Assembly (NCBI GenBank): GCA_031549365.1
Contig: JAVBPX010000007.1
Coordinates: 1-64,000, forward strand
DNA length: 64,000 nt
Direction: 5' to 3'
Source of the DNA: Alphaproteobacteria bacterium
Lineage (GTDB): Bacteria; Pseudomonadota; Alphaproteobacteria; Rs-D84
The first letter of the stretch is position 1; each line of letters opens with the position of its first letter. This document shows, piece after piece, positions 5,791 through 18,024 of this stretch. Under the pieces are notes generated by a model. It did not search any database and had not been told where the DNA came from. It was given only the letters and a program-made list of their open reading frames with translations. The position numbers were made by a program, and so were the translations under genes.

Positions 5791-5879
5791 TGGCGGAGGG
5801 ACCGGGACTTGAACCCGGGGACCACATTACTGCGGTCACAGATTAGCAATCTGCTGCATTACCGCTCTGCCACCCCTCC
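5791..5879 (-). tRNA. tRNA-Ser(GCT)
   Basis: Reverse complement reads GGAGGGGTGGCAGAGCGGTAATGCAGCAGATTGCTAATCTGT...GGTTCAAGTCCCGGTCCCTCCGCCA; long variable arm and encoded CCA. Confidence 0.97.
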
Positions 5880-6301: not shown

Positions 6302-6769
6302 TTATCTAAAAAAGAACTTTACTTTGTTGGTGTTCCCGGACCTGTTACAATATAATTCCTTGCCCGCAGCATACCCATTAATACGAACTTCATCCACAAA
6401 ATCCATTTTTGCAATCGCAAAATAAGCACAATCCGAATAACGAACCTGTTCGTATTCAATTGCATAACGACTACCATTTGTTTCAGAGGTAGCAATCATT
6501 GAATCGCTAATTTGATTTTTCTCAGAACGAATTGCACCCGCTTTGATTAAATATGATGTCGAAATACCAGAATAATTTCCGCGCCCAGCAAATAAAATTT
6601 TAATAGAATCTGACAAAGTACGCAAATCATCAGTCGCAGTCATCTGACGCTGTTGACGTTGAACCGCTTGGAACAATGTCAATGCAGATATCACCATAAT
6701 GGCACCAATTGCCATAACGCCCAAAATTTCAATCAACGACCGACCAGATTCATTTTTAAAAACTCGCAT
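6302..6769 (-). CDS. Type IV pilin-like protein (PilS-type)
   Basis: Prepilin cleavage motif ESG|RSLIEILGVM plus a hydrophobic helix; C-terminal Cys pair. Confidence 0.8.
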   Translation of the reverse strand: MRVFKNESGRSLIEILGVMAIGAIMVISALTLFQAVQRQQRQMTATDDLRTLSDSIKILFAGRGNYSGISTSYLIKAGAIRSEKNQISDSMIATSETNGSRYAIEYEQVRYSDCAYFAIAKMDFVDEVRINGYAAGKELYCNRSGNTNKVKFFFR

Positions 6770-6824
6770 ATTCCTCTCCATTTTTCGCACGCCAATTATA
6801 TCATAAAACAAGCAAAATTCCAAA

Positions 6825-7643
6825 TTAAACTTTAAAATCCGTTTTTGCAGAAAACACCTGACGCACTCCTCTAACCCGAATTGCTGATTTTTGCATCCTC
6901 ATGGCCCCAGCCACCGCATCCATCCCGTCATCCTTGTTTTTTCCGATTGGATTAAACTCGGACATTTCGGTAATTAAATTTGAATCCATAACACGATTAT
7001 TAACATACATTTTCCCGGATGATAAAATCGGCTCAATTGCATCCATTATGCGCAATTCTTTTTTTTCATGATTAATAATCGGAACAATTGATATTTGAAA
7101 ATGTTCAATCTTGGCTTCTTGGCGTAAAATTTCTGGGATTGCGCTACCAACGCCATTAACCTCGATTCCAACAACATTTAAATCATATCGTCGCAAAAAA
7201 TTTAATACCGCCCGACACTGCGTTTTCATCGGATACAAATCATCATCTGAAACACGAATATATAAAACGTCATGAATAAAAACATTTTTTGACACCGCAT
7301 CAAAAAATAATAGCGCACAAACACTACCATCTGCCCGCGCACGTCCACTGGACGGATCCCAATAAACAGAATAATTGGATATCGAATATTGCCCCAAACG
7401 CCCCTCACCCCGATATGTAATCAACTCGGAATCATATTCAATCAAACGATTTGGATCCAGCCTAATTTTTTCAATTGGGATTACTTCCAACATCATCTGA
7501 GACATAAAAAGTCGAATCCCAACACGATCGCGCATTCTATTAATTGCATCAATTGAAAAAACCTCGGGCCAATTTGAATTTCCATTTTCATCCACAATTG
7601 GAATTTTTAAAATATCAAACCCATGCAAAAATCCTTGCTTCAT
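6825..7643 (-). CDS. Phage terminase large subunit, C-terminal nuclease half
   Basis: YWDPSSG, GIEVNGVG, KKELRIMDAIEPIL and KDDGMDAVAGA RNase H-like motifs; own GAGG RBS before MKQGF. Confidence 0.85.
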   Translation of the reverse strand: MKQGFLHGFDILKIPIVDENGNSNWPEVFSIDAINRMRDRVGIRLFMSQMMLEVIPIEKIRLDPNRLIEYDSELITYRGEGRLGQYSISNYSVYWDPSSGRARADGSVCALLFFDAVSKNVFIHDVLYIRVSDDDLYPMKTQCRAVLNFLRRYDLNVVGIEVNGVGSAIPEILRQEAKIEHFQISIVPIINHEKKELRIMDAIEPILSSGKMYVNNRVMDSNLITEMSEFNPIGKNKDDGMDAVAGAMRMQKSAIRVRGVRQVFSAKTDFKV

Positions 7644-7712
7644 AACAATCCTCATAAACCTTGTGTAATCTAGGGCTACAAGCAACACAATAAAAATAAA
7701 AAATATCACGCT

Positions 7713-7896
7713 ATAAAAAAACTCCGGTCTTGCAACCGGAGTTTATTCTGAGCGTCCACATAGAGAAGGAGGAAGGAAAGGAGAAAGGAACGCCCAAAAA
7801 CTTCAAAAACTTGTTATCCCAGGGGCCTAGAGGAGAGAGAATGTAGGAGGGAGTCTAGCACCCCTGGAATATATACAGGGGATTTCTCTCCTGATA
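7713..7896 (-). ncRNA. Predicted small RNA with CU-rich anti-Shine-Dalgarno loops (cuckoo/alpha-r14-like architecture)
   Basis: Sigma70-type promoter upstream, three stem-loops (two with CUCC/CCUCCU-rich loops) and an intrinsic terminator ACUCCGGU-N6-ACCGGAGU-UUUUUU. Confidence 0.7.
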
Positions 7897-7901
7897 CATC
7901 A

Positions 7902-7929
7902 AATATAACAAAAGTTTTTTATTTGTCAA
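7902..7929 (-). promoter_or_regulatory. Sigma70-type promoter of the predicted sRNA
   Basis: TTGACA (7929-7924), 16-nt spacer ending in TGT (extended -10), TATATT (7907-7902). Confidence 0.65.
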
Positions 7930-8135
7930 GGGAATAAATTAAAAAATCTTTTCTTTTGTCTAATTCGGTGAATCCACGCACTTCCCACAACTTAAAAAAC
8001 ATCAAAAACGCCAAGATTTTTCACCAAAATCAAACAATTATCCACAGAACACAAAGTGCAACGTGGAATCTCCCGGCTAATAAATAAAAATCCCCAGTAT
8101 GCTTTTGTTCAATGCAACCCGACGGCCGAAACACC

Positions 8136-8747
8136 CTACCCAACATCATAAATCGTGTCTTTGGCATGGGGCGTCCCAATATAAATCATCGCACCATCCG
8201 GCGACAAAATAAAATCCAACTCTTTTAAACGCTCTCTCATCTGTTCGCGCTTGATGGCCGTATTACAAGTATTCGGCACTTCAACATCATCACAAATAAT
8301 TAAATCTGCCCGCAATCCTGTGATATTTCCATGCAATCCCTGACATACAACCGACGGCTCACGCATACCGGGGCGCCGAGCAACAGTAATCCTATCTGAC
8401 GACCACTCTTTTTTTACACGCGGCACTAAATGTTGGCATCCCGGATGCGATTCGATAATATTTTTGATATGGGTAACCATGCGCGTTGCTAAATTTTGTT
8501 CGGCCGATAATATTAAAATTTTGCTTTCCGGCCTAACAGATAAAACATACGCGACAAATGCTCCAACCACAGATGATTTCCCAGAATGCCTAAACGCCAT
8601 CATTAACCCACGACGCGTATCCCCACATAAAACATTACATAAAAATTCAACCATACACCTATGATGCATCGGCATAGACAATCCTAAAAAATCATTCCAA
8701 ACATCAATAAAATCATTCACAGATTTTACATCAACGGATCGAAACAT
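8136..8747 (-). CDS. Phage terminase large subunit, N-terminal ATPase half
   Basis: Walker A AFRHSGKS, Walker B ADLIICDDVE, coupling motif YIGTPH; stops right after the ATPase domain. Confidence 0.88.
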   Translation of the reverse strand: MFRSVDVKSVNDFIDVWNDFLGLSMPMHHRCMVEFLCNVLCGDTRRGLMMAFRHSGKSSVVGAFVAYVLSVRPESKILILSAEQNLATRMVTHIKNIIESHPGCQHLVPRVKKEWSSDRITVARRPGMREPSVVCQGLHGNITGLRADLIICDDVEVPNTCNTAIKREQMRERLKELDFILSPDGAMIYIGTPHAKDTIYDVG

Positions 8748-9301
8748 CCATAATCATCCTCGGAATCAACAGAATCTGTAATTTTTCCATAATCATCAAT
8801 TAATGTTGGAATCGCATTATGCAACACATTGACCAAATTATAAAACAACCCCATTTGTCCAGATCCAACCCGGCTATTGATTAAATCATCAATATAATGC
8901 ATTTGCCCCAATAATTCTTTGGACCATTTTTTCATCTCTTCGTAACGAACAGACGACTCCATAGCATCCAAACTATACCCGGCAACATCCTTCATAGACT
9001 CCAATAAAAAATTAAAATCTGAATTTAGTTGATCTGCCTCGATCACACGATTTGGCTGATAATCGACCGCGCGCTCTAAATTAATAACACGCATAATTGT
9101 AACAACAACATCTTTTGCGGGCGGCACATCAAAATTGATAACTCCGCCAACCTTGCCGATTTGATGATCTACTTTATAAATTCCATATTCAATAACGTCT
9201 GAATTAACCATAACTTTAACATCATACTCGGAAAATATAAAAAACGGGAAACCAAACTCCATTTGAATCCCATCTGAAACATACTGTATTTTTTGAACCA
9301 T
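8726..9301 (-). CDS. Short phage tail fibre-like protein (T7 gp17-type N-terminal anchor)
   Basis: N-terminus YVSDGIQMEFGFPFFIFSEYDVKV...ADQLNSDF resembles podovirus fibre anchors; no long receptor-binding domain. Confidence 0.65.
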   Translation of the reverse strand: MVQKIQYVSDGIQMEFGFPFFIFSEYDVKVMVNSDVIEYGIYKVDHQIGKVGGVINFDVPPAKDVVVTIMRVINLERAVDYQPNRVIEADQLNSDFNFLLESMKDVAGYSLDAMESSVRYEEMKKWSKELLGQMHYIDDLINSRVGSGQMGLFYNLVNVLHNAIPTLIDDYGKITDSVDSEDDYGCFDPLM

Positions 9302-9309
9302 AACACACC

Positions 9310-9762
9310 CTATCCTTTAACTATATTTTTACCAATAGATTTCAATAAATTTTTACTACCTTTGGTCTTTTTATATTTTCGTACTAAATTTTTTTTCTGA
9401 TTTTCCAATTCATCCATTGATTCTTTTTGACTGATTTCTCTTTCTAAAAAATCCTCATTGATTTCTTTTTCCAATCTTTTTAACACAGCAACATCGCTAT
9501 CCGAATCCGCCGAAGCCCCACCAGCACCATAACCAGCCCGCTGTTTTGCAATTGTTTTTTTAATTAAATTAGCTTTATTTTTATTTGCCTCGGCCATCTG
9601 ACGAATTAATTTTTGTCTTTCGGTCTCAACCTCTAAAATATCACTTTTTAATTTTTTCTTTTCTTTTTTGGCATCACTAACGCTTCCGCCAATTGATTTA
9701 ACAGCATCCAAACTCCCAGATACCCCTATAATTTTTTCAACATCACTTACAATTTGTCCCAT
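9310..9762 (-). CDS. Putative internal virion/ejection-type coiled-coil protein
   Basis: Lies after the nozzle gene; coiled coil with QRAGYGAGG motif. Confidence 0.5.
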   Translation of the reverse strand: MGQIVSDVEKIIGVSGSLDAVKSIGGSVSDAKKEKKKLKSDILEVETERQKLIRQMAEANKNKANLIKKTIAKQRAGYGAGGASADSDSDVAVLKRLEKEINEDFLEREISQKESMDELENQKKNLVRKYKKTKGSKNLLKSIGKNIVKG

Positions 9763-9835
9763 AACAACCCCTATTTTTTTAAATATAATACACCAAATAT
9801 GCCGGACCTGGTCGACGCGCCGCCATAAATATCAC

Positions 9836-11572
9836 TTATATGTAATTCCCAGAAACCAAAACAGACAATACTGTTATCGGCAATTCTTCGTCCCCCACGA
9901 TTGACCATAACGGGCAATCACATTTTGTCATAGTTCCTAATACGCCAACCGAAACATCACCGGAATATCCTGGGTTATCATCCGCATAAATAGAATTATC
10001 CAATGCGATTTTTTTCGAACCATCTCCAAAATCAACATTTATTGATTTCGTATCCAACACCCGGATCACACATTTATCAATCCGAATTTTTTTCGGCAAA
10101 TTCATACTGTCTGTAATCATCGGCAAACCGGCCACACAATGTGTGTATTTATATTTTCCACAATCGCTAAAAACCGCATTATCAAATTTTTCCAAATATG
10201 TTTTTTCATCACGATCTACAACAACATAAATATCTTCCATAACAATGGCTAATGATTTAAAAATCCCCGCTGTCCTATAAACAGACCACGCAGCCACCTC
10301 AACCGACGGCACATAAGTTAACACCGCAATACTACCATCTCCACAAACGACAAACAATTGATGCCGTCCATTATGATACGCCATCGCCAACGGCCGATTC
10401 ATTAAATGGCTTGATAATACGGCTAAATCTTGGGCGCTATATGTACCGTTTAATTTATCCAAAACCAACTCACGAATTTCATTTCCTGAACGCGACACAA
10501 ACACAGTCGATCCTTCAACCGATTGCGGCGCCAAATACGAATCAACATATGACCCAACATTTGTCTGTTGCTGAATTTGAATTGATGTGGGCGTAATTGG
10601 ATCCCCTGAAATACTCCATTCTGCAATACTGGTCAAAACTTGTAAATGCGTACCAGAAACAACCGTAACAACTTTTTGCTGTTGATGCGATAATAACATT
10701 AATGAAATCGCATCATCATCCAATCCGTTTCCTACATTAAAATTAAAATGATTCCCTGTTTTTGATAACCAAACACCACAAGGCACATCCCGCGTCCCGC
10801 CAAAAACCAATCTATTTTGATGAAATGTAACGGACGACGGGAAACCACGGCGTGGTGAAAAAACGCCCTCCTGCCAATCTGGGAAAAATCCAGTCGGACA
10901 ATCTTTCAGCGGCCGATTCTGGGAAACATCAATATACTCATCCGTAACAACGCGAATAATAAATTCCCCATCATAAAATCTTAAATGCGATCCAATATCA
11001 GATTGCTTAAAATGATTTTTCTCGGACACATATAAACGAACATGCCCCAATAATTCAGACGTCCCCAATTTTAATGAAACCCCCGAATTATCATCAAATT
11101 TCGCGAATGGAATGCAGCGCATACTATCAACCAAATCAAAATAAATATTCGCAATTGAAAATTTTCCATCAGCATTTCGTTTTAAAACTTGCGGCATATA
11201 ATCGGTATGAACAAAAATCATTTGGGAAAATCGTTGCGCTGATTGAATTTGGTTCAAATCCTTTTCATCCCAAATCGTATCCAGTTCGGCAATTTTAATA
11301 TCATCATCGTAAATTGTTAATTTGCGATCTGTTAAAACACATAAATAATCCATATCATCACGGAATACGAATGAAAACAACCGCGCCTTTCCAACAATTT
11401 CATCAACCAAAACTGTCCCAGATCTACGACGAATACCCCCAGAAACCAAAACATCCATATTTTGTAATTTTGAAACACCATTGATAACATTTTTCAAATC
11501 GTTACGAACATGAGCAAATTTGCTAATTTCCCCAGACGAAAAATTAGATTGCGTTTTGATAAAACGTCCCAC
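9836..11572 (-). CDS. Podovirus tail tubular protein B / nozzle (T7 gp12-like)
   Basis: QSNFSSGEIS start, GGIRRRSGT, FPSSVTFHQNRLVFGG and VAAWS motifs. Confidence 0.85.
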   Translation of the reverse strand: MGRFIKTQSNFSSGEISKFAHVRNDLKNVINGVSKLQNMDVLVSGGIRRRSGTVLVDEIVGKARLFSFVFRDDMDYLCVLTDRKLTIYDDDIKIAELDTIWDEKDLNQIQSAQRFSQMIFVHTDYMPQVLKRNADGKFSIANIYFDLVDSMRCIPFAKFDDNSGVSLKLGTSELLGHVRLYVSEKNHFKQSDIGSHLRFYDGEFIIRVVTDEYIDVSQNRPLKDCPTGFFPDWQEGVFSPRRGFPSSVTFHQNRLVFGGTRDVPCGVWLSKTGNHFNFNVGNGLDDDAISLMLLSHQQQKVVTVVSGTHLQVLTSIAEWSISGDPITPTSIQIQQQTNVGSYVDSYLAPQSVEGSTVFVSRSGNEIRELVLDKLNGTYSAQDLAVLSSHLMNRPLAMAYHNGRHQLFVVCGDGSIAVLTYVPSVEVAAWSVYRTAGIFKSLAIVMEDIYVVVDRDEKTYLEKFDNAVFSDCGKYKYTHCVAGLPMITDSMNLPKKIRIDKCVIRVLDTKSINVDFGDGSKKIALDNSIYADDNPGYSGDVSVGVLGTMTKCDCPLWSIVGDEELPITVLSVLVSGNYI

Positions 11573-11583
11573 ATTTAACTCCT

Positions 11584-12126
11584 TTAATACCTAACATCCA
11601 ATAACGAAAAATGAATTCCCCCATCTCTTGACACTTGGGAACTGTCTATAAATTTTGCCTGACGTAATTCGGCCTCGAACAAAGAAACCAGAGTCCGGTA
11701 TAAATTATAATTCTCGGTCAGAGGCAAACAAAATTCGCACGCCAACTTTAAAACAGCAATTGATTGAAAATATGGAGGATAGTCGGAAACATCGACTCGC
11801 CGAATATAATTCAAATTAATCGAAGATGTATTTGCAAAAATATTTGCACCCATAACTTCATAATTATTTGTTTCATCCACACTTATAATCCGCAAACAAT
11901 CAGACGGGATTAAAAAACAATTTTTCCTATCCTCACCTGCAACAGGGATCAATCTTTTTGAAACTCTGGCAAAATTCCAAGGATGCATCGCCACCAAACC
12001 ATCAACAACGCCTGGAAATATTGCATGCGCCATAACGGCCGCAACCGATTCTTCCGACATGGAAACAATCGGTTTTTCACCAATTTTTAATAATGCTTGC
12101 GCGCATAAATCTATTTTGGTTAACAT
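11584..12126 (-). CDS. Podovirus tail tubular protein A / adaptor (T7 gp11-like)
   Basis: TKIDLCAQALLKIGEKPI, HPWNFA and IPSDCLRII motifs; upstream of the nozzle gene. Confidence 0.85.
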   Translation of the reverse strand: MLTKIDLCAQALLKIGEKPIVSMSEESVAAVMAHAIFPGVVDGLVAMHPWNFARVSKRLIPVAGEDRKNCFLIPSDCLRIISVDETNNYEVMGANIFANTSSINLNYIRRVDVSDYPPYFQSIAVLKLACEFCLPLTENYNLYRTLVSLFEAELRQAKFIDSSQVSRDGGIHFSLLDVRY

Positions 12127-12216
12127 TTAAAAACCTCTCTATTAATAAGGGCAACCATAATGGCACCAAACAGCCCATCGCCAAATCGAACACTTGAATC
12201 AGCAATGGGCACAAAA

Positions 12217-12444
12217 TTATAACGCAACCGTTTTAACAACTTCATCCGTGCTTGTTACAACCAATATTCTAGTGGCATCAGTTCCGTTTGTTAAAATCAT
12301 ATCGCCCTTGTTCATCAATCCAGAAACAGTATTAAAAAAACCATCGACCTGAATATTTGCAATCGCTTCACGACCGGCATAATGCCACAAAGTAAAGCCA
12401 TTTGCATATGCAATGACCGACAAACATTTATTTGAAAAAGACAT
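12217..12444 (-). CDS. Small conserved phage head-associated protein
   Basis: LSVIAYANGFTLWHY motif, strong AAGGAG RBS, directly after the capsid gene. Confidence 0.65.
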   Translation of the reverse strand: MSFSNKCLSVIAYANGFTLWHYAGREAIANIQVDGFFNTVSGLMNKGDMILTNGTDATRILVVTSTDEVVKTVAL

Positions 12445-12552
12445 AAATAACTCCTTATTTAATTATTAAAAATCCTATCGGTTCGATCTGAAATTCAATA
12501 TATTATTTTCATTGCAATAATTTATAAAATCTGACCGAACCGGTAAAATTAA

Positions 12553-13374
12553 CTATTGTGCGTCTTCACATTTCAAACGAACAACACCAGATCCATCAAC
12601 CATAATGGCCCCTTGGGACATACTGTTTGATACGAAATGCGCTGCACGTTCACCATGCCAAGAAATATCGGATTTCACATCCTGACCACATGCATGACCA
12701 ATGGCCGAACGGTGATAAATGAAACAATCACGCTCATCTCCATTAATTGGTAACGCATTATGTAAAACCCAAATAATCCCCATCCATTTTTTGGACTCGG
12801 ATCCACTCAATAATGGATATTGATTTCCAACATATTCTGATGATACAAATTCATCCATGGACAATAATTGGTTCCATTGATTAACACCAACAACAGCAAA
12901 TCTCTGACCATCATCTGGCACATCATTTTGATTTAATTTTGCAATTGCGGATAAAATCAAATCCTTGGACAAACCGGTTGAATAATCCCCAACAAATGCG
13001 GTCGCAGAATTCATAGCATTAATAATTAATTCATCGGTTTTTCGACCCAACGCATACGCCCCAGCGGACGCAACAACACGACGTTCATCAACATTGGTTT
13101 TTAATTCATCCAATGCATCAACCCAATCCCCTGCATAAAAATCATTCAACAAACATTCAACTGGCTCATGATCCAAATTCATCACAGGCACCAACCCATG
13201 ACGCGATTTTGAACTGGCAATACCTTTGCCTACTTTTTGAAAAGTTGTGCTTGCGCCAACAACTCCATTTTTTGATCTAACCGTAGCACGCAATTTTGTA
13301 CCAATTTGTTGATACGCCAAATGCACATCGGCTTCGAACTGTTTAACAAACGCTTGGTCAATTGACAAAGACAT
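12553..13374 (-). CDS. Podovirus-type major capsid protein
   Basis: SIDQAFVKQFEADVHLAYQQIGTKLR, YAGDWVDALDELK, AYALGRKTDELII and SAIGHACG; AAGGAG RBS. Confidence 0.88.
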   Translation of the reverse strand: MSLSIDQAFVKQFEADVHLAYQQIGTKLRATVRSKNGVVGASTTFQKVGKGIASSKSRHGLVPVMNLDHEPVECLLNDFYAGDWVDALDELKTNVDERRVVASAGAYALGRKTDELIINAMNSATAFVGDYSTGLSKDLILSAIAKLNQNDVPDDGQRFAVVGVNQWNQLLSMDEFVSSEYVGNQYPLLSGSESKKWMGIIWVLHNALPINGDERDCFIYHRSAIGHACGQDVKSDISWHGERAAHFVSNSMSQGAIMVDGSGVVRLKCEDAQ

Positions 13375-13527
13375 CTATAACTCCTTTATTAAATTAAAAA
13401 ACCGGGAATGAACCCCACTCCCGGCAAACACAAATACTCTCACAGTTGTACAGGAAATATTAAAAACCAAACGTCAAACAAATCACGATTTTCTGATAAT
13501 TCGAAACCCTATAATTTATCTAAATTA

Positions 13528-13599
13528 ATATAAATATATTTATTTCTACATTTTATTTTTCAAATAAAATGCCCCAACAATCGTTGGGACAACAAATAA
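13528..13599. repeat. Direct repeat copy 1 flanking the GNAT gene
   Basis: ATATAAATATATTTATTTCTACATTTTATTT...AAATAAAATGCCCCAACAATCGTTGGG matches 14453-14527. Confidence 0.75.
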
Positions 13600-13703
13600 T
13601 CCAATATCAAAATTAATGTTATATTTTTAATAAAATCTCGCGCTGCAAAAATATACTTCTAAACACTCGGGCCCAACTGGGTTCCCCGAAAAACTCACTT
13701 ATT

Positions 13704-14291
13704 TTATTTGAATTCTTTTGCTAATTTTGAAAACAATGCCGAAGTTCTGAATCTATTTTCTTTTCTTACAAATACATCTTCGCGCAATTCGCCCTCAAAT
13801 ACATAACCGCAACGGCTGGCTACTTTTTTGCTTTGTTCATTTTCCCTATCGCACCGTATAAAAATTCTATTCATTTTAAAATCATTAAACAGCTCTTTTT
13901 CCAGTGCCGAAATTGCATATTTGATAATCCCTTTGCCTGTCATATCTTTATCCAGCCAATATCCCAATCCACACAACCTGTCTTGCGTATTTATCTTGTG
14001 AACATCAATCCATCCGCACATAGCGCCATCAAAAAAAATCCCAAACTCAAAATTTTTACAATCCTCCCAATCAGACTTTGCAGCATATAAAAACGCCAAA
14101 GAATCATTAACATCTTTTACAACATCGTCATTTGCCCACTGAACAAATGGCAACAGATGATGCCGATTTCTTTCCGTCATATTAAAAAGCAATCGCGCAT
14201 TTTCCAAATCGGGTTCGACAAATCTCAATTCCAAACCTTTGACGTCCGTTGAAATTACTTTTGGAAACATCTTTAAATCAATAACATCCAT
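13704..14291 (-). CDS. RimJ/RimL-family GNAT acetyltransferase
   Basis: GLGYWLDKDMTGKGI and NEQSKKVASRCGYVFEGELRE; start trimmed to MDVID. Confidence 0.88.
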   Translation of the reverse strand: MDVIDLKMFPKVISTDVKGLELRFVEPDLENARLLFNMTERNRHHLLPFVQWANDDVVKDVNDSLAFLYAAKSDWEDCKNFEFGIFFDGAMCGWIDVHKINTQDRLCGLGYWLDKDMTGKGIIKYAISALEKELFNDFKMNRIFIRCDRENEQSKKVASRCGYVFEGELREDVFVRKENRFRTSALFSKLAKEFK

Positions 14292-14452
14292 CAAAAATCC
14301 TTTTATATTTTGTACCAATCGCTTGAAGAATAGCATAAAATTTATATTTTTCAAACTATTAACATATGATTGGCAGAATTGAACTTCGTCTACTTGACGA
14401 CCCACCCACCAGAATTTTAACACAAGGAAAACTCAACGATGCAATCTCAACT

Positions 14453-14527
14453 ATATAAATACATTTATTCCTACATTTTTATTTACCAAAATAAAAATGC
14501 CACAACACTCGTTGGGCAAAAAATAAA
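14453..14527. repeat. Direct repeat copy 2 flanking the GNAT gene
   Basis: ATATAAATACATTTATTCCTACATTTTTATTT...AAATAAAAATGCCACAACACTCGTTGGG matches 13528-13599. Confidence 0.75.
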
Positions 14528-14614
14528 ATATTTTAAAGGCTAAATACTCTCTTTCAAAAATCCCCGAACTTTTTTATTGTCCGGGGATCACTCTCTAACA
14601 AGAAATCAAAATTA

Positions 14615-15376
14615 TTACTTCTTGGCAAACATAAATGATAATTCACTATAAATTGCTCGGAACGAAGTAATTGTTAATGTCAAAATAAATGACACTATTG
14701 CGAAACGACGAACTGCAAACCAAACCATATCCCATGAAAACCAACATACTTGGTCCGATAAACAGTATTCCGACAAACTACGTCCAATTATATGCCCAGC
14801 ATCCAAATAATACAGAATTCCCGCTACAAATCCCAATCCCAAAGAAATCACAACGTTTTGTTTTAATTCCTTGGAAACTCTTGGACGACGTTTTTCTGTG
14901 TAATTTCCATAAACAAACAAAAATACACATGCAATAACAAACAAAAACATAGGAATAAAAAATTTCATAAACAACGAAATCCAAACAAAAAATTGGTCAA
15001 TTAAAAACAAATCTAATGAAAACACATCTGTGTATCTATAAACAGCAACCGCATTCATAACACCAAAATAAGTTGCAACAAATGCTGACACCATCATCCA
15101 AAATGCCATAAACCGTCTGGCACCAATATAACCCGCAATATTTGTAATTTCATGCCCAATATTGCTAACTGAATTTTGTGTTTCTTTTAACAACTTTTGC
15201 TCCGCAGCACCCTTTTTTTCAGGCACCACAGAATTTAAATCTTTTTCAACAGCTTCAACCACCTTAACAGGCTTAACAACTTTCTCCGCCTTAACTGATT
15301 TAACAGCCTTAATCTTTTTAACTTTTTTGACCTTAATTTCTCTTGCCAATGAAACTTTCTTTTTTGGTCTTGCCAT
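14615..15376 (-). CDS. Hypothetical membrane protein with Lys-rich N-terminus
   Basis: MARPKKK...VKKVKK N-terminus followed by about four hydrophobic segments; GAGG RBS. Confidence 0.7.
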   Translation of the reverse strand: MARPKKKVSLAREIKVKKVKKIKAVKSVKAEKVVKPVKVVEAVEKDLNSVVPEKKGAAEQKLLKETQNSVSNIGHEITNIAGYIGARRFMAFWMMVSAFVATYFGVMNAVAVYRYTDVFSLDLFLIDQFFVWISLFMKFFIPMFLFVIACVFLFVYGNYTEKRRPRVSKELKQNVVISLGLGFVAGILYYLDAGHIIGRSLSEYCLSDQVCWFSWDMVWFAVRRFAIVSFILTLTITSFRAIYSELSFMFAKK

Positions 15377-15455
15377 AATCCAATCCTCTCTATTCTCTCG
15401 AACTCTCCTAAACAAAAAACGGGTTCAACCAAATGGCCGAACCCGCACAACCATC

Positions 15456-16031
15456 TTATTTTTTCTTTGCTACTTTTTTAACAGCTGGTTTTTTGGCTGC
15501 TGGTTTTTTAACAGCAACTTTTTTTGCAACTGGTTTTTTCGCAGGGGCTTTTTTTGCCACTACTTTCTTAGCAACTGGTTTTTTTGCTGCTGGTTTTTTT
15601 GCAACTACTTTTTTAACAGCTGGTTTTTTGGCTGCTGGTTTTTTAACAGCAACTTTTTTTGCAACTGGTTTTTTCGCAGGGGCTTTTTTAACAGCAACTT
15701 TTTTTGCAACTGGCTTTTTTGCGGCTACAGGTTTTTTTGCAACAGCTTTTTTAACAGCCAATTTTGCAACTTTTTTTGCAACTGGTTTTTTCGCAGGAGC
15801 TTTTTTAACAGCAACTTTTTTGGCCACTGGTTTCTTAGCAACTGGTTTTTTAACAGCTACAACTTTTTTTGCAACTGGTTTCTTAGCGGCTGGTTTTTTC
15901 GCAGCTACTTTTTTAACAGCTGGTTTTTTAACAGCTGGTTTTTTTGCAGCAGCTTTAACAGCAGGTTTCGCAGCTACTTTTTTTGCAGCTGGTTTTTTCC
16001 CTTCGCTAAAGAACTTTGATAATACGGACAT
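15456..16031 (-). CDS. Histone H1-like Lys/Ala/Pro repeat protein (Hc2/AlgP-like)
   Basis: Almost entirely KKP(A/V)A, KKVAV and KKAPA pentapeptide repeats; AGGAG-rich RBS. Confidence 0.85.
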
Positions 16032-16150
16032 TCCTTTCTCCTTCCTTATTTATCTCAGATCATTTTTTAATGATCTTAAAACAATTGTAATGGATCTGGA
16101 AATTTTAGTAAAGCACTTTTTAATAAATTCTAAAAAATAATTTCAAAAAA

Positions 16151-16807
16151 TTACGAATATAATTTTTTAAAACCCGATTCAATTTTTTTTACATACTCTT
16201 GATCGTGTTCTCTCCAATATTTTGGATCACGCATCATCGTTCGTAAATCATTTTCATTTAATGATGAATCAAAATTTTCACCAGTTGAAATTTTTGGCTC
16301 AACCGATTGCATCATATTGTATAACGCTTGTATTCCCTTGGCGCTGGAACACATTGTATTCATAACATCTTCCGGCAAAAACTTTTCGCCCCACGCTTGA
16401 ATTGATTCACATGATGAAATCATTTTATCTTTTGAACCAAAAATTTTTTCTAATTCACTTAATTCTTCCAACTCGGATCGAATTTGAAAAATATTATCCA
16501 ACTCTGGTTTTAAAATTTCATCCGCCAACAAATAAATCTGTTCAACTTGATTTTTATTCAAACCAATTTTTTTAAACGTATTTCGAATCGAATCATTATT
16601 TTCAAACATCGGATGTATCGGATATTCTGAAACATCATCCGGCACACCAATTGCTTTGAAAAACTTCTGACGACATTCATCATCCATATCATTATTTGGG
16701 ATTGAAATCATCCCACCCATCTTTTTTTCCAACGCCAAATATGAATTCATCAATGAATCCACATTCAACTCACCATTTTCATTTTTAAATTTTTCTGGAA
16801 TATCCAT
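16151..16807 (-). CDS. Capsid assembly scaffolding protein (podovirus-type)
   Basis: IPEKF...SYLALEKKMG start and C-terminal LRTMMRDPKYWRE...GFKKLY. Confidence 0.8.
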   Translation of the reverse strand: MDIPEKFKNENGELNVDSLMNSYLALEKKMGGMISIPNNDMDDECRQKFFKAIGVPDDVSEYPIHPMFENNDSIRNTFKKIGLNKNQVEQIYLLADEILKPELDNIFQIRSELEELSELEKIFGSKDKMISSCESIQAWGEKFLPEDVMNTMCSSAKGIQALYNMMQSVEPKISTGENFDSSLNENDLRTMMRDPKYWREHDQEYVKKIESGFKKLYS

Positions 16808-16879
16808 AACCCCTCCACAGTAAAAGTATTACCCACTTAATGAACGAACTAAAATAACGTCAAAATGGGATGAGTATAA

Positions 16880-16948
16880 AGAATTCCAAAAATTTTAGGG
16901 CCGCGATGTACATAGTGGTACATAAGGTTCTAAAATTTTTGGAACTTG
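16880..16948. repeat. Family B-like long hairpin
   Basis: TTCCAAAAATTTTAGGGCC...ATGTAC-ATAGTG-GTACAT...GGTTCTAAAATTTTTGGAA. Confidence 0.55.
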
Positions 16949-16970
16949 TTTTTAATCGCCCATTTTCACG

Positions 16971-17159
16971 TTATTTTGCAATACTGGAACGCAGAAAAAA
17001 TATCCCAGCCAACGGAAACACCGTCTGCAATAAATCAATCAAACCTAAATCTCCGACAAAAAACGCACCGATTGCGGAAATAATTCCAACCCCGGTTGTA
17101 ATATATGTCTTTTTACCTTTAAATAACCCACCATTAATAATGCTTAAAATTGTATTCAT
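16971..17159 (-). CDS. Small two-TM holin-like protein
   Basis: 62 aa, FKGKKTY motif, two hydrophobic helices, AAGGAG RBS; next to a cell wall hydrolase. Confidence 0.6.
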   Translation of the reverse strand: MNTILSIINGGLFKGKKTYITTGVGIISAIGAFFVGDLGLIDLLQTVFPLAGIFFLRSSIAK

Positions 17160-17284
17160 AATAACTCCTTATATATAATGTCTAAAACACACCAACCTTT
17201 GACTCTAAAAAAATACCCGTACCAACAAAAGTATTTCAAAATCAATCAAAACGTACTAGTTGGCTTCGCTTTTCATTGATTTTT

Positions 17285-17740
17285 CTATAAATAAAATAAC
17301 AAATTCCCAACTTCATAAATATACCCCAACGCTCTGGCCCAATCCGGATCCATATCATTTCGATGAAACCGAACCGCTGAAAATATATTATTTGAAATTT
17401 GTCCTAACATCATCCGCCGAATTGTTCTTAAACAAACCAAAAATTCTTCATCAGTGTTATCAACAAACAAATACGAATGATGATTCGATTCCCGATCTAA
17501 CGATTCAAATAGTGCCGCATCCTCACCAATTGCTTCAAAAGATTGTCCCAACAATTTATGTCGATTTAAAATCATAGCAGCCAATGCTTCCTTAACCGCT
17601 AAATCTTCACCACTTGTTTCCGCATACATTACTCGGGCCAATTTATATTGAATCCTCTTTTCATCATCATAATTTTCAATAATTGTAAAAATCGGCTTTG
17701 AAATTTGTGAAACCATTTCTGTTTTTAAAACAACATTCAT
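17285..17740 (-). CDS. Cell wall hydrolase (SleB/Hydrolase_2 family)
   Basis: LARVMYAETSGE, AAMILNR, AVRFH...PDWA...VGNLLFY. Confidence 0.8.
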   Translation of the reverse strand: MNVVLKTEMVSQISKPIFTIIENYDDEKRIQYKLARVMYAETSGEDLAVKEALAAMILNRHKLLGQSFEAIGEDAALFESLDRESNHHSYLFVDNTDEEFLVCLRTIRRMMLGQISNNIFSAVRFHRNDMDPDWARALGYIYEVGNLLFYL

Positions 17741-18024
17741 AAATTGTCTCCTCTCTCTAATTTTTTTTCAATCCTCAACAAATGATCCGTCAACCTAGTT
17801 TCCAAATCCTTCATAGCGGACATACTTGCGTAATTCCTTGCAACATCTAATTTATAATCAGCCAAATCTTTGCGAATTGCATCTACATGAAACGCATAAT
17901 TCTCGCGTAAACGTTCAACCAAATGTTCGACTGCCGAAATCTGATTTCGAATCCATAAAAAAAAGCCCCCGATCAAGGGAACTTCTACAACCTGTATCCA
18001 CCAGGCCAAATCCATATTCTCCAT
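17737..18024 (-). CDS. Phage-type membrane-anchored coiled-coil protein
   Basis: N-terminal TM then LADYKLDVARNYAS...RLTDHLLRIEKKL; translationally coupled to the hydrolase. Confidence 0.6.
   Translation of the reverse strand: MENMDLAWWIQVVEVPLIGGFFLWIRNQISAVEHLVERLRENYAFHVDAIRKDLADYKLDVARNYASMSAMKDLETRLTDHLLRIEKKLERGDNL

Follow-up and report, generated by a model that had tools for sequence, protein, structure and literature searches.

The window analysed here is a stretch of 64,000 nucleotides (nt) from an Alphaproteobacteria bacterium of the order Rs-D84 (GenBank assembly GCA_031549365.1, contig JAVBPX010000007.1, positions 1 to 64,000 of the forward strand), and on its minus strand, between positions 7929 and 7713, it carries what has the appearance of an uncatalogued, independently transcribed small RNA (sRNA) with its own promoter and terminator. 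Comparison of relatives places this RNA in a modular, so far undescribed family of hairpin RNAs with CU loops that extends across Rs-D84, the Enterousia group of gut bacteria with small genomes. The family is genuine: it is conserved, its stems covary, and as a rule it is present in one copy per genome. The best explanation for the locus, to which we assign a probability of somewhat above one half (roughly 55%), is that it encodes an independently transcribed CU-loop sRNA of ~183 nt that is tied to a T7-like particle cluster and acts by occluding ribosome-binding sites. The parts of the gene are as follows.

7902-7929, minus strand: sigma-70-type promoter of the sRNA, with TTGACA at 7929-7924, a 16-nt spacer, TG at 7910-7909 and TATATT at 7907-7902
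7713-7895, minus strand: predicted transcript of ~183 nt, its ends inferred from the promoter and terminator; matched at 7715-7875 by the covariance model R1 (E = 1.4e-25)
7871-7899, minus strand: P1, the predicted 5' hairpin, variable in sequence and length among relatives
7816-7870, minus strand: P2, a predicted hairpin of 55 nt that presents loop 1
7832-7853, minus strand: loop 1, CUCCCUCCUACAUUCUCUCUCC, 22 nt, which holds the anti-Shine-Dalgarno (anti-SD) core CCUCCU and whose 3' half is antisense to GGAGAGAGAAUG
7747-7798, minus strand: P3, a predicted hairpin of 52 nt that presents loop 2
7758-7787, minus strand: loop 2, CUUUCUCCUUUCCUUCCUCCUUCUCUAUGU, 30 nt, which holds CUCCUUU and CCUCCUU, both identical to the 16S rRNA 3' tail
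7713-7744, minus strand: intrinsic terminator with an 11-pair stem (7744-7719), a GCAA loop and U7, its pairs covarying

The promoter agrees with the consensus at 11 of 12 positions, has the TG element in addition, and ranked first among 15 promoter-like sites in a scan of positions 6500-9500; its position predicts a start at ~7895. The stretch from 7900 to 7713 folds into four hairpins with a minimum free energy (MFE) of -61.6 kcal/mol (z = -4.17), a stability that none of 200 shuffled sequences reached, and the loops of P2 and P3, composed of pyrimidines only, are unpaired in both the MFE and the consensus folds. The original prediction, which a model had made from the letters of this DNA, was of an unannotated small RNA with a promoter, hairpins, two anti-SD loops and a terminator, and each of these is present on the minus strand where it was placed, the loops unpaired as supposed. 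One detail fared less well: the 5' hairpin that it described is there, but the GAAA loop given for it is matched only roughly.

What carries this finding is conservation. A DNA search of 40 relatives gave a match to the sRNA in 22 of 24 same-family genomes, with the loop-1 region 100% identical across genera and with compensatory change in the closing stem pairs, from UAGA/UCUA to CAGA/UCUG. The exact 22-mer of loop 1 recurs in at least 119 stretches in a pattern search of ~185,000 species genomes, and the invariance of loop 1 over 26 nt spans more than 100 species and at least 17 genera. Among 145 loci with the core, a promoter of the form TTGACA-N15-18-TAnnnT is found in 139, the loop-2 motif in 138 and a T-run terminator in 137. 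These loci yield 119 distinct full-length RNAs, mostly of 175-200 nt, of which 114 were aligned, the five outside 160-205 nt being left out. Across the 114, loop 1 is invariant over 26 nt (columns A40-T67), and RNAalifold returns 24 pairs, 19 of them with compensatory changes, and leaves both loops unpaired.

For covariation the set was thinned to less than 90% identity (47 sequences) and three sequences with large insertions were removed. In the remaining 44 diverse sequences, the helices of P2 and P3 have 97.2% of their cells paired, and double changes appear in 16 of 20 pairs; none of 500 shuffles reached any of the observed measures, and slid controls were 12-60% paired. Taken singly, helices 1 and 2, which form P2, are 93.5% and 98.6% paired with compensatory changes in 8 of 12 pairs, and helix 3, which forms P3, is 99.4% paired with compensatory changes in all eight of its pairs. 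G-U pairs are frequent in the stems (24/44 and 29/44 at two positions, for example), and as the other strand would have C-A mismatches at these places, the CU-rich strand must be the RNA strand, with which the orientation of promoter and terminator agrees. Conserved with covarying stems in more than 100 genomes, the element is therefore far beyond chance.

R1 matches 119 of 121 family genomes, as a rule with one copy in each, and gives weak matches in three other families. The conservation of stems and loops in relatives that the original prediction had called for is thus what was found. Nine of the ten family genera sampled with R1 have the RNA, the genus of the window among them, and the window's own genome was found to have a single copy. 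Second or adjacent partial copies occur in a few genomes (G021 on contigs C17 and C39, G001 with two adjacent matches on C35, G011 on C35 and C19, and G153), and the copy in locus L044 is without the usual promoter. Among the loop-1 matches listed, all are titled as gut or rumen metagenome-assembled genomes: Candidatus Enterousia, uncultured Alphaproteobacteria, 'Rickettsiales bacterium' and a few 'Muribaculaceae' bins. Published work (PMC12306168) places Enterousia in Rs-D84, an uncultured order in which every member has a reduced genome; the words 'RNA' and 'phage' are absent from its text. At gathering score, the Infernal/Rfam search for a known family that had been proposed with the original prediction recovered two tRNAs only in the window and nothing in three related loci. 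When positions 7400-8300 were scanned with cmscan at E values up to 10, 12 weak matches appeared, none of them to an alphaproteobacterial sRNA family, and the top one, PsrR1, reached 23.1 bits against a gathering score of 42; the matches to PsrR1, ylbH and PyrR were rejected as matches of composition or of the terminator. None of the titles listed by the literature searches deals with this RNA, or with a T7-like cluster in these bacteria.

The exposed loops suggest what the RNA might do. The 16S rRNA of the window's genome ends in ...GAUCACCUCCUUU (its 3' end is also given as CACCUCCUUU), and the loops repeat the anti-SD part of this tail: CCUCC is present in 119/119 of the RNAs and CUCCUUU in 117/119. 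The invariant 3' half of loop 1 is moreover the exact antisense of AGAGGAGAGAGAAUG, that is, of an SD sequence, a purine spacer and a start codon. SD-like tetramers occur in half of the start regions predicted in the genome (457/922, 50%). Hfq, ProQ and CsrA were not found in the genome, which is 97.6% complete, and with these chaperones not found and with loops that resemble the anti-SD, the simplest mechanism is therefore direct pairing of the loops with initiation regions. In such a mechanism the loops, as copies of the 16S tail, would pair with purine-rich start regions of the form GGAG, purine spacer, AUG; the pairing would block binding of the 30S subunit, and it would work without Hfq, ProQ or CsrA.

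A similar mechanism has been proposed for the cuckoo RNAs of other Alphaproteobacteria, to which the original prediction had likened this RNA. As described in excerpts of one report, an RNA of the cuckoo family (alpha-r14, RSs0680a-d, CcsR1-4) consists of two to four simple hairpins side by side, 24-50 nt in length and with loops of 9-27 nt, has no multiloop and carries CCUCCUCCC in every hairpin loop; the family is found in Rhizobiales and Rhodobacterales, RSs0680a is bound by Hfq, and the proposed mechanism is occlusion of the ribosome-binding site (PMC4615179). CcsR is co-transcribed with a DUF1127 gene. The RNA described here likewise has an alphaproteobacterial host, adjacent modular hairpins whose number varies with the taxon, large apical loops with an anti-SD-like pyrimidine motif, and stems that vary and covary. 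Unlike the cuckoo RNAs, however, it has the defining motif CCUCCUCCC (CCTCCTCCC) in none of its 119 unique full-length members. The loops in the window read CUCCCUCCUAC... and ...CCUUCCUCCUU... and differ from each other; they sit on hairpins of 55 nt (loop of 22) and 52 nt (loop of 30), longer than the cuckoo range of 24-50 nt for hairpins and, in the second case, of 9-27 nt for loops, and are accompanied by a 5' hairpin and a terminator. The host order is Rs-D84, a genome typically has a single copy, and the search of the window's genome gave no Hfq. The neighbours differ too, the RNA being tied to a phage-derived cluster and lying beside terminase halves or, elsewhere, XRE-type and methyltransferase genes (DUF1127 itself was not searched for). 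With the motif absent (0/119), no Rfam model match, another order and no Hfq found, the RNA is therefore an analogue of the cuckoo RNAs and not a member, and membership of cuckoo/alpha-r14/CcsR is not supported; the resemblance, as we read it, is functional only.

RNAIII and the Rsa RNAs of Staphylococcus are C-rich-loop sRNAs with UCCC loops. The unpaired loops of such RNAs have been proposed or shown to seed pairing with SD sequences and to block translation, according to excerpts of the same report (PMC4615179). The likeness lies in unpaired C-rich hairpin loops and SD pairing, which here is predicted; the differences are another phylum, no homology of sequence or structure, and loops of 22-30 nt of pure pyrimidine as opposed to short UCCC.

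Candidate targets were sought by scoring loop duplexes against the 922 predicted start regions, with reversed loops of the same composition as controls. The best candidate within the particle cluster is the gene for a histone H1-like protein.

15456-16031, minus strand: gene for an H1-like protein rich in Lys, Ala and Pro (191 aa), between the scaffold and capsid genes
16032-16047, minus strand: its purine leader, AAGGAAGGAGAAAGGA, directly before the ATG

This leader had been singled out in the original prediction as a complement of the second loop, and it does pair well with loop 2: at -26.4 kcal/mol, with 11 contiguous complementary bases, the duplex is the third-best of the start regions scored and within the top 0.2% of the 922. 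In 17 of 22 cluster loci the gene has this same place between scaffold and capsid. Three of the 17 have exactly AAAAGGAGAGAAGAAUG / AAAAGGAGAGAAGAAUGGCA as the leader and the rest have close variants of it, also purine-rich; in all 17 the leader pairs with loop 1 at -14.6 to -19.9 kcal/mol, as a duplex of 7 bp, a bulge and 5 bp that includes the AUG. In every genus looked at, the all-purine leader is predicted to pair with loop 1 or loop 2, and in two genomes of another family, f3, whose loops are variants, the match to the genome's own loops extends over 12 and 10 contiguous bases. The leader is the most consistent match, and by pairing with it the RNA may hold back translation of cluster genes. 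The protein itself has AKKPxAKK repeats and usually starts with MAFxFLKP, and it may serve to condense DNA or be an internal protein of the head. Outside the cluster, the start region of a VirB3-like type IV secretion gene (G000:C15:72153-72431, plus strand, where G000 is the window's genome), AGAGGAUAGAGAAUG, is complementary to loop 1 at 14 of 15 positions. The corresponding pairing in the loci of 29 relatives ranges from -11.3 to -19.7 kcal/mol in 24 (22 of these from -12.8 to -17.8) and from -2.0 to -10.4 kcal/mol in five, and the relatives' leaders keep short GAGAGA-type matches only, so that the gene is a suggestive candidate for loop 1 and nothing more.

The particle cluster and its terminase bear on the reading in another way, since the RNA gene lies inside them.

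6302-18024, minus strand: T7-like structural cluster, to which a separate portal locus belongs (G000:C4:4231-5598)
8136-8747, minus strand: terN, the ATPase half of a T7-like large terminase (203 aa), covering positions 290-458 of phrog_38
6825-7643, minus strand: terC, the nuclease half, with its likely start at ATG 7643-7641; the open reading frame (ORF) of 6825-7709 covers phrog_38 468-706

The cluster occupies 6.3-18 kb of the window and holds lysin-like, T7 scaffold, H1-like, GNAT, capsid and small head-associated genes, then tubular protein A, nozzle, two small tail-associated ORFs, terN, the sRNA, terC and a pilin-like ORF, all on the minus strand. The T7-type portal on the other contig is intact, and no replication or integrase gene was seen in the cluster within the window. 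As had been supposed in the original prediction, the large terminase is truly split: its phrog_38 matches show ATPase and nuclease as separate genes, with the RNA gene precisely at the cut. The GTG at 7709 lies in the tail of the sRNA terminator, and the ATG at 7643-7641 is the likelier start of terC. Homologues of terC are present in 139 of 151 family genomes, mostly as a separate ORF of 270-385 aa, and terN was found in 34 of 41 relatives and in all six families sampled, as a separate ORF of 202-255 aa except for two stop-interrupted matches. The order lysin, scaffold, H1-like, capsid, tube, nozzle, terN is kept across genera and across six families, with capsid identities of 70-81%.

A GNAT acetyltransferase gene (13704-14423, minus strand) lies between the H1-like and capsid genes, together with an 82-aa ORF on the other strand; no match to it was found at that position in other cluster loci, and in L226-L228 the gap from scaffold to capsid contains the H1-like gene alone. 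The pilin-like ORF after terC (6302-6823, minus strand, 173 aa) has weak PilS/Bundlin matches below the cut-off, and a similar ORF follows terC in G003, G004, G025, G027, G028, G032, G043, G049 and G020. Just beyond it in the window is a tRNA gene (5794-5879, minus strand).

Viral sequence collections bear on the origin of the division. Of 80 terN loci from IMG/VR the eight distant ones were examined closely, as were six loop-1 loci. In all eight distant contigs, where terN is 46-52% identical, the two halves match contiguously and there is no CU motif; in two of the eight, checked by ORF, the terminase is one gene, of 505 and 499 aa. Of the 80, 72 are 60-70% identical and many are on contigs of ~10.0-10.5 kb (L308-L379), which we take to be the same chromosomal cluster excised by provirus prediction and not free phages. 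The host gene birA and adjoining regulators are visible in three of the six loop-1 loci (L302, L305 and L306), and no DNA match to the terminase region was found among INPHARED phage records. Since the free-phage relatives are unsplit, the split, which falls at the domain linker, is a derived, ancient and maintained feature of the chromosomal cluster.

An unsplit terminase in free phages also means that an insertion did occur, and one could imagine that the RNA gene is simply what is left of it, a former intron or small mobile RNA gene that divided the terminase, has since decayed and is now tolerated. The gap between the halves does vary in content by genus, from 0.2-0.5 kb with the RNA to 1.8-15 kb with host genes. 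This account, however, leaves the invariant loops, the covarying stems and the promoter kept in 139 of 145 loci without a reason, and both terminase halves are conserved throughout the order; no group I or group II intron family was matched at any threshold used in the window and three related loci, and the window's genome has one copy of the RNA. We regard it as very improbable. A prophage integrated into an sRNA gene that served as its attachment site was also considered and rejected, as the cluster is vertically conserved across the order and no integrase was seen.

The position of the RNA in relatives tells how old its association with the terminase may be. It lies directly 3' of terN in the window and in G003 (family f1, another genus, with a contig break after the RNA), and outside f1 in G025 (f2), G026 (f3), G027 (f4), and G028 and G032 (both f5). 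Six of the seven genomes examined outside the family have a hairpin with a CU-rich loop of ~20-32 nt some 0.2-0.6 kb downstream of terN, and a TTGACA-type promoter precedes the hairpin in G025, G026, G027, G028 and G032, with none nameable in G035. No CU-loop hairpin was found adjoining terN in G029 (f6). The arrangements are these.

G025 (f2): two hairpins and a terminator, then terC; the same architecture as in the window
G027 (f4): one hairpin and no terminator, so that the hairpin forms the 5' untranslated region (UTR) of terC
G028 and G032 (f5): a single hairpin followed by terC; in G032 a further RNA, loop-1-like, lies 7 kb away
G026 (f3): three tandem loop-1-like modules after terN
G035 (f3): hairpins on the opposite strand

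The number of CU-loop modules per RNA thus varies from one to three among families. In G026 (L267:11640-12080) the RNA has expanded into something like an array, whose modules repeat with a period of ~115 nt and all end in an identical 3' arm, GACUUAGGGG. Because a CU-loop RNA directly follows terN in five families, the window probably keeps the ancestral layout, which by parsimony would be terN-RNA-terC.

Elsewhere the layout has changed. In Enterousia and at least two further genera the terminase gap holds, on the opposite strand, genes for DnaB, a double helix-turn-helix protein (two HTH_3 domains) and a 226-aa ORF (L226:4908-8241 of G024 is an example), so that terN and terC cannot there be one transcript. 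In these genomes the RNA is at the head of the cluster, divergent from the XRE-like, weak OmpR-type winged-helix and birA genes that precede the lysin gene. A further TTGACAA-like box lies 12-13 nt upstream of the -35 element in 114 of 121 distinct sRNA promoter regions (loci L018-L165). The XRE-like regulator or the weak OmpR-type one, both encoded divergently, may bind there; the promoter in the window is without this box. Where a genome has both terC and the RNA they share a contig in 87 of 113 cases; 86 of these 87 have the RNA upstream of the cluster and on the other strand, and in 83 its distance from terC is 10-15 kb. The gene after the RNA is convergent in most genomes. The genetic linkage of the RNA to the T7-like particle cluster is order-wide but not universal, and given this linkage the idea of a chromosomal housekeeping sRNA unrelated to the phage genes was dropped.

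These arrangements also allow a judgement on whether the element acts primarily in cis, as a leader or attenuator of terC whose promoter, CU-loop hairpins and terminator would set the degree of read-through and yield the short RNA as a by-product. In G000, G025, G027, G028 and G032 there is indeed a promoter, then one or more CU-loop hairpins, then the start of terC 35-70 nt past the last hairpin or terminator, and in G027 the hairpin is simply the 5' UTR of terC. In the window, no promoter-like site was found between the sRNA terminator and the start of terC in the scan of 6500-9500, nor is there any other before terC, and terC here should therefore depend on read-through of the sRNA terminator; the promoter-terminator cassette would then leave the nuclease half of this genome transcribed by read-through only. 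Set against this are the 86 of 87 same-contig genomes in which the RNA is on the opposite strand, 10-15 kb from terC with a convergent gene next to it, and its loops are invariant all the same; G032, moreover, has its second CU-loop RNA 7 kb from terC, and in G035 the RNA is on the opposite strand. An RNA that is far from terC and still invariant cannot owe its conservation to a purely cis role, and as a primary explanation for the element we find attenuation of terC doubtful.

Several observations weigh against the preferred reading of an independently transcribed sRNA that is tied to the cluster and occludes ribosome-binding sites. Among the RNA runs searched, none turned up that contains the sRNA stretch. 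At or below -18 kcal/mol the true loops found 24 (loop 1) and 35 (loop 2) of the 922 start regions and the reversed loops 27 and 33, and counts of long contiguous matches were similar for true and reversed loops. The H1-like leader, which is generically purine-rich, was still in the top 0.9% with reversed loop 2 (-21.2 kcal/mol), and the number of cluster genes in the top 10% for loop 1, with start codons picked by hand, fell from 6 of 15 to 3 of 15 when the loops were reversed. Since reversed loops score equally genome-wide, no specific target is shown, and the complementarity is real but generic. Among the 22 RNA-bearing f1 relatives (24 compared), the RNA and terN are on different contigs in 13, one of them a three-contig assembly, and genus g14 supplies 107 of the 119 family matches, for which reason the family counts are not independent. 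Lastly, strict invariance over 26 nt exceeds what generic SD pairing needs, and hints at a fixed partner, either a protein or one RNA. Of the original prediction that the RNA silences the particle cluster or the H1-like gene, then, the linkage to the cluster and the conserved predicted pairing with the H1-like leader stand, and targets that rise above the reversed-loop control do not; ribosome-binding-site occlusion with silencing of the cluster or of the H1-like gene remains a plausible hypothesis. On expression itself, the contigs of two metatranscriptomes from a related study include none over the sRNA and are uninformative for it; one of these contig sets matches the nozzle, tube and capsid region perfectly, so that the organism was present there, and is silent on the sRNA.

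A fixed partner might be a protein, with the pyrimidine loops as a docking platform: the RNA could be a sponge for S1, a cold-shock protein or a KH-domain protein, or an RNA subunit of the terminase or packaging motor. Such a role would account for the 26-nt invariance over more than 100 species and at least 17 genera, which goes beyond the degenerate requirements of SD pairing, and for the RNA gene lying exactly between the ATPase and nuclease halves in five families; it may also be relevant that no small-terminase family was recognised among the cluster ORFs scanned. Phage phi29 offers a loose precedent in its prohead RNA (pRNA), a structured RNA of ~170-190 nt encoded by a podovirus-type packaging system, and the RNA gene here similarly adjoins the packaging ATPase. 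Unlike pRNA, however, it matches no pRNA or other Rfam model, and it has no complementary pair of loops from which a ring could be built: both loops are pyrimidine-only, which makes ring pairing of the pRNA type impossible. A module number of one, two or three among families would be unusual for a structural subunit, and no partner protein has been identified. We therefore think a primarily protein-binding RNA unlikely, and a role in packaging is pure speculation.

In genomes of 0.7-1.1 Mb, the cluster has the look of a domesticated particle system akin to a gene transfer agent (GTA). GTA clusters have been described in reduced endosymbionts, as excerpts of one study report (PMC9254644). Like GTAs of the RcGTA type, the cluster is phage-derived and structural, is vertically conserved in small genomes, has no replication genes and occupies more than one locus, the portal being elsewhere. 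Unlike RcGTA, its genes are T7-like (podovirus tube A, nozzle, T7 scaffold and T7-type portal) and not HK97-like, its terminase is split, and it is known here from genes alone. It is tempting to speculate that the RNA serves as the inbuilt translational switch for a domesticated, podovirus-type and GTA-like system present throughout the order, in which the RNA gene would have created and maintained the two-piece terminase and the RNA would mask the starts of the H1-like and other cluster genes and terminate before the nuclease half, keeping the particles silent until release. We put this larger scheme forward tentatively and consider it improbable in full.

An sRNA that has survived such genome reduction, in a genome in which the usual sRNA chaperones were not found, is likely to be important. 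The family is uncatalogued, and few non-ribosomal sequences in this entire order of uncultured gut bacteria are as strongly conserved; the 22-nt sequence of loop 1 is a highly specific marker of the lineage for metagenomes. The RNA also marks the split point of a domesticated T7-like terminase, and so raises the question of how a two-piece terminase works. Its association with the cluster raises another: whether a podovirus-derived, GTA-like system may be under RNA control.

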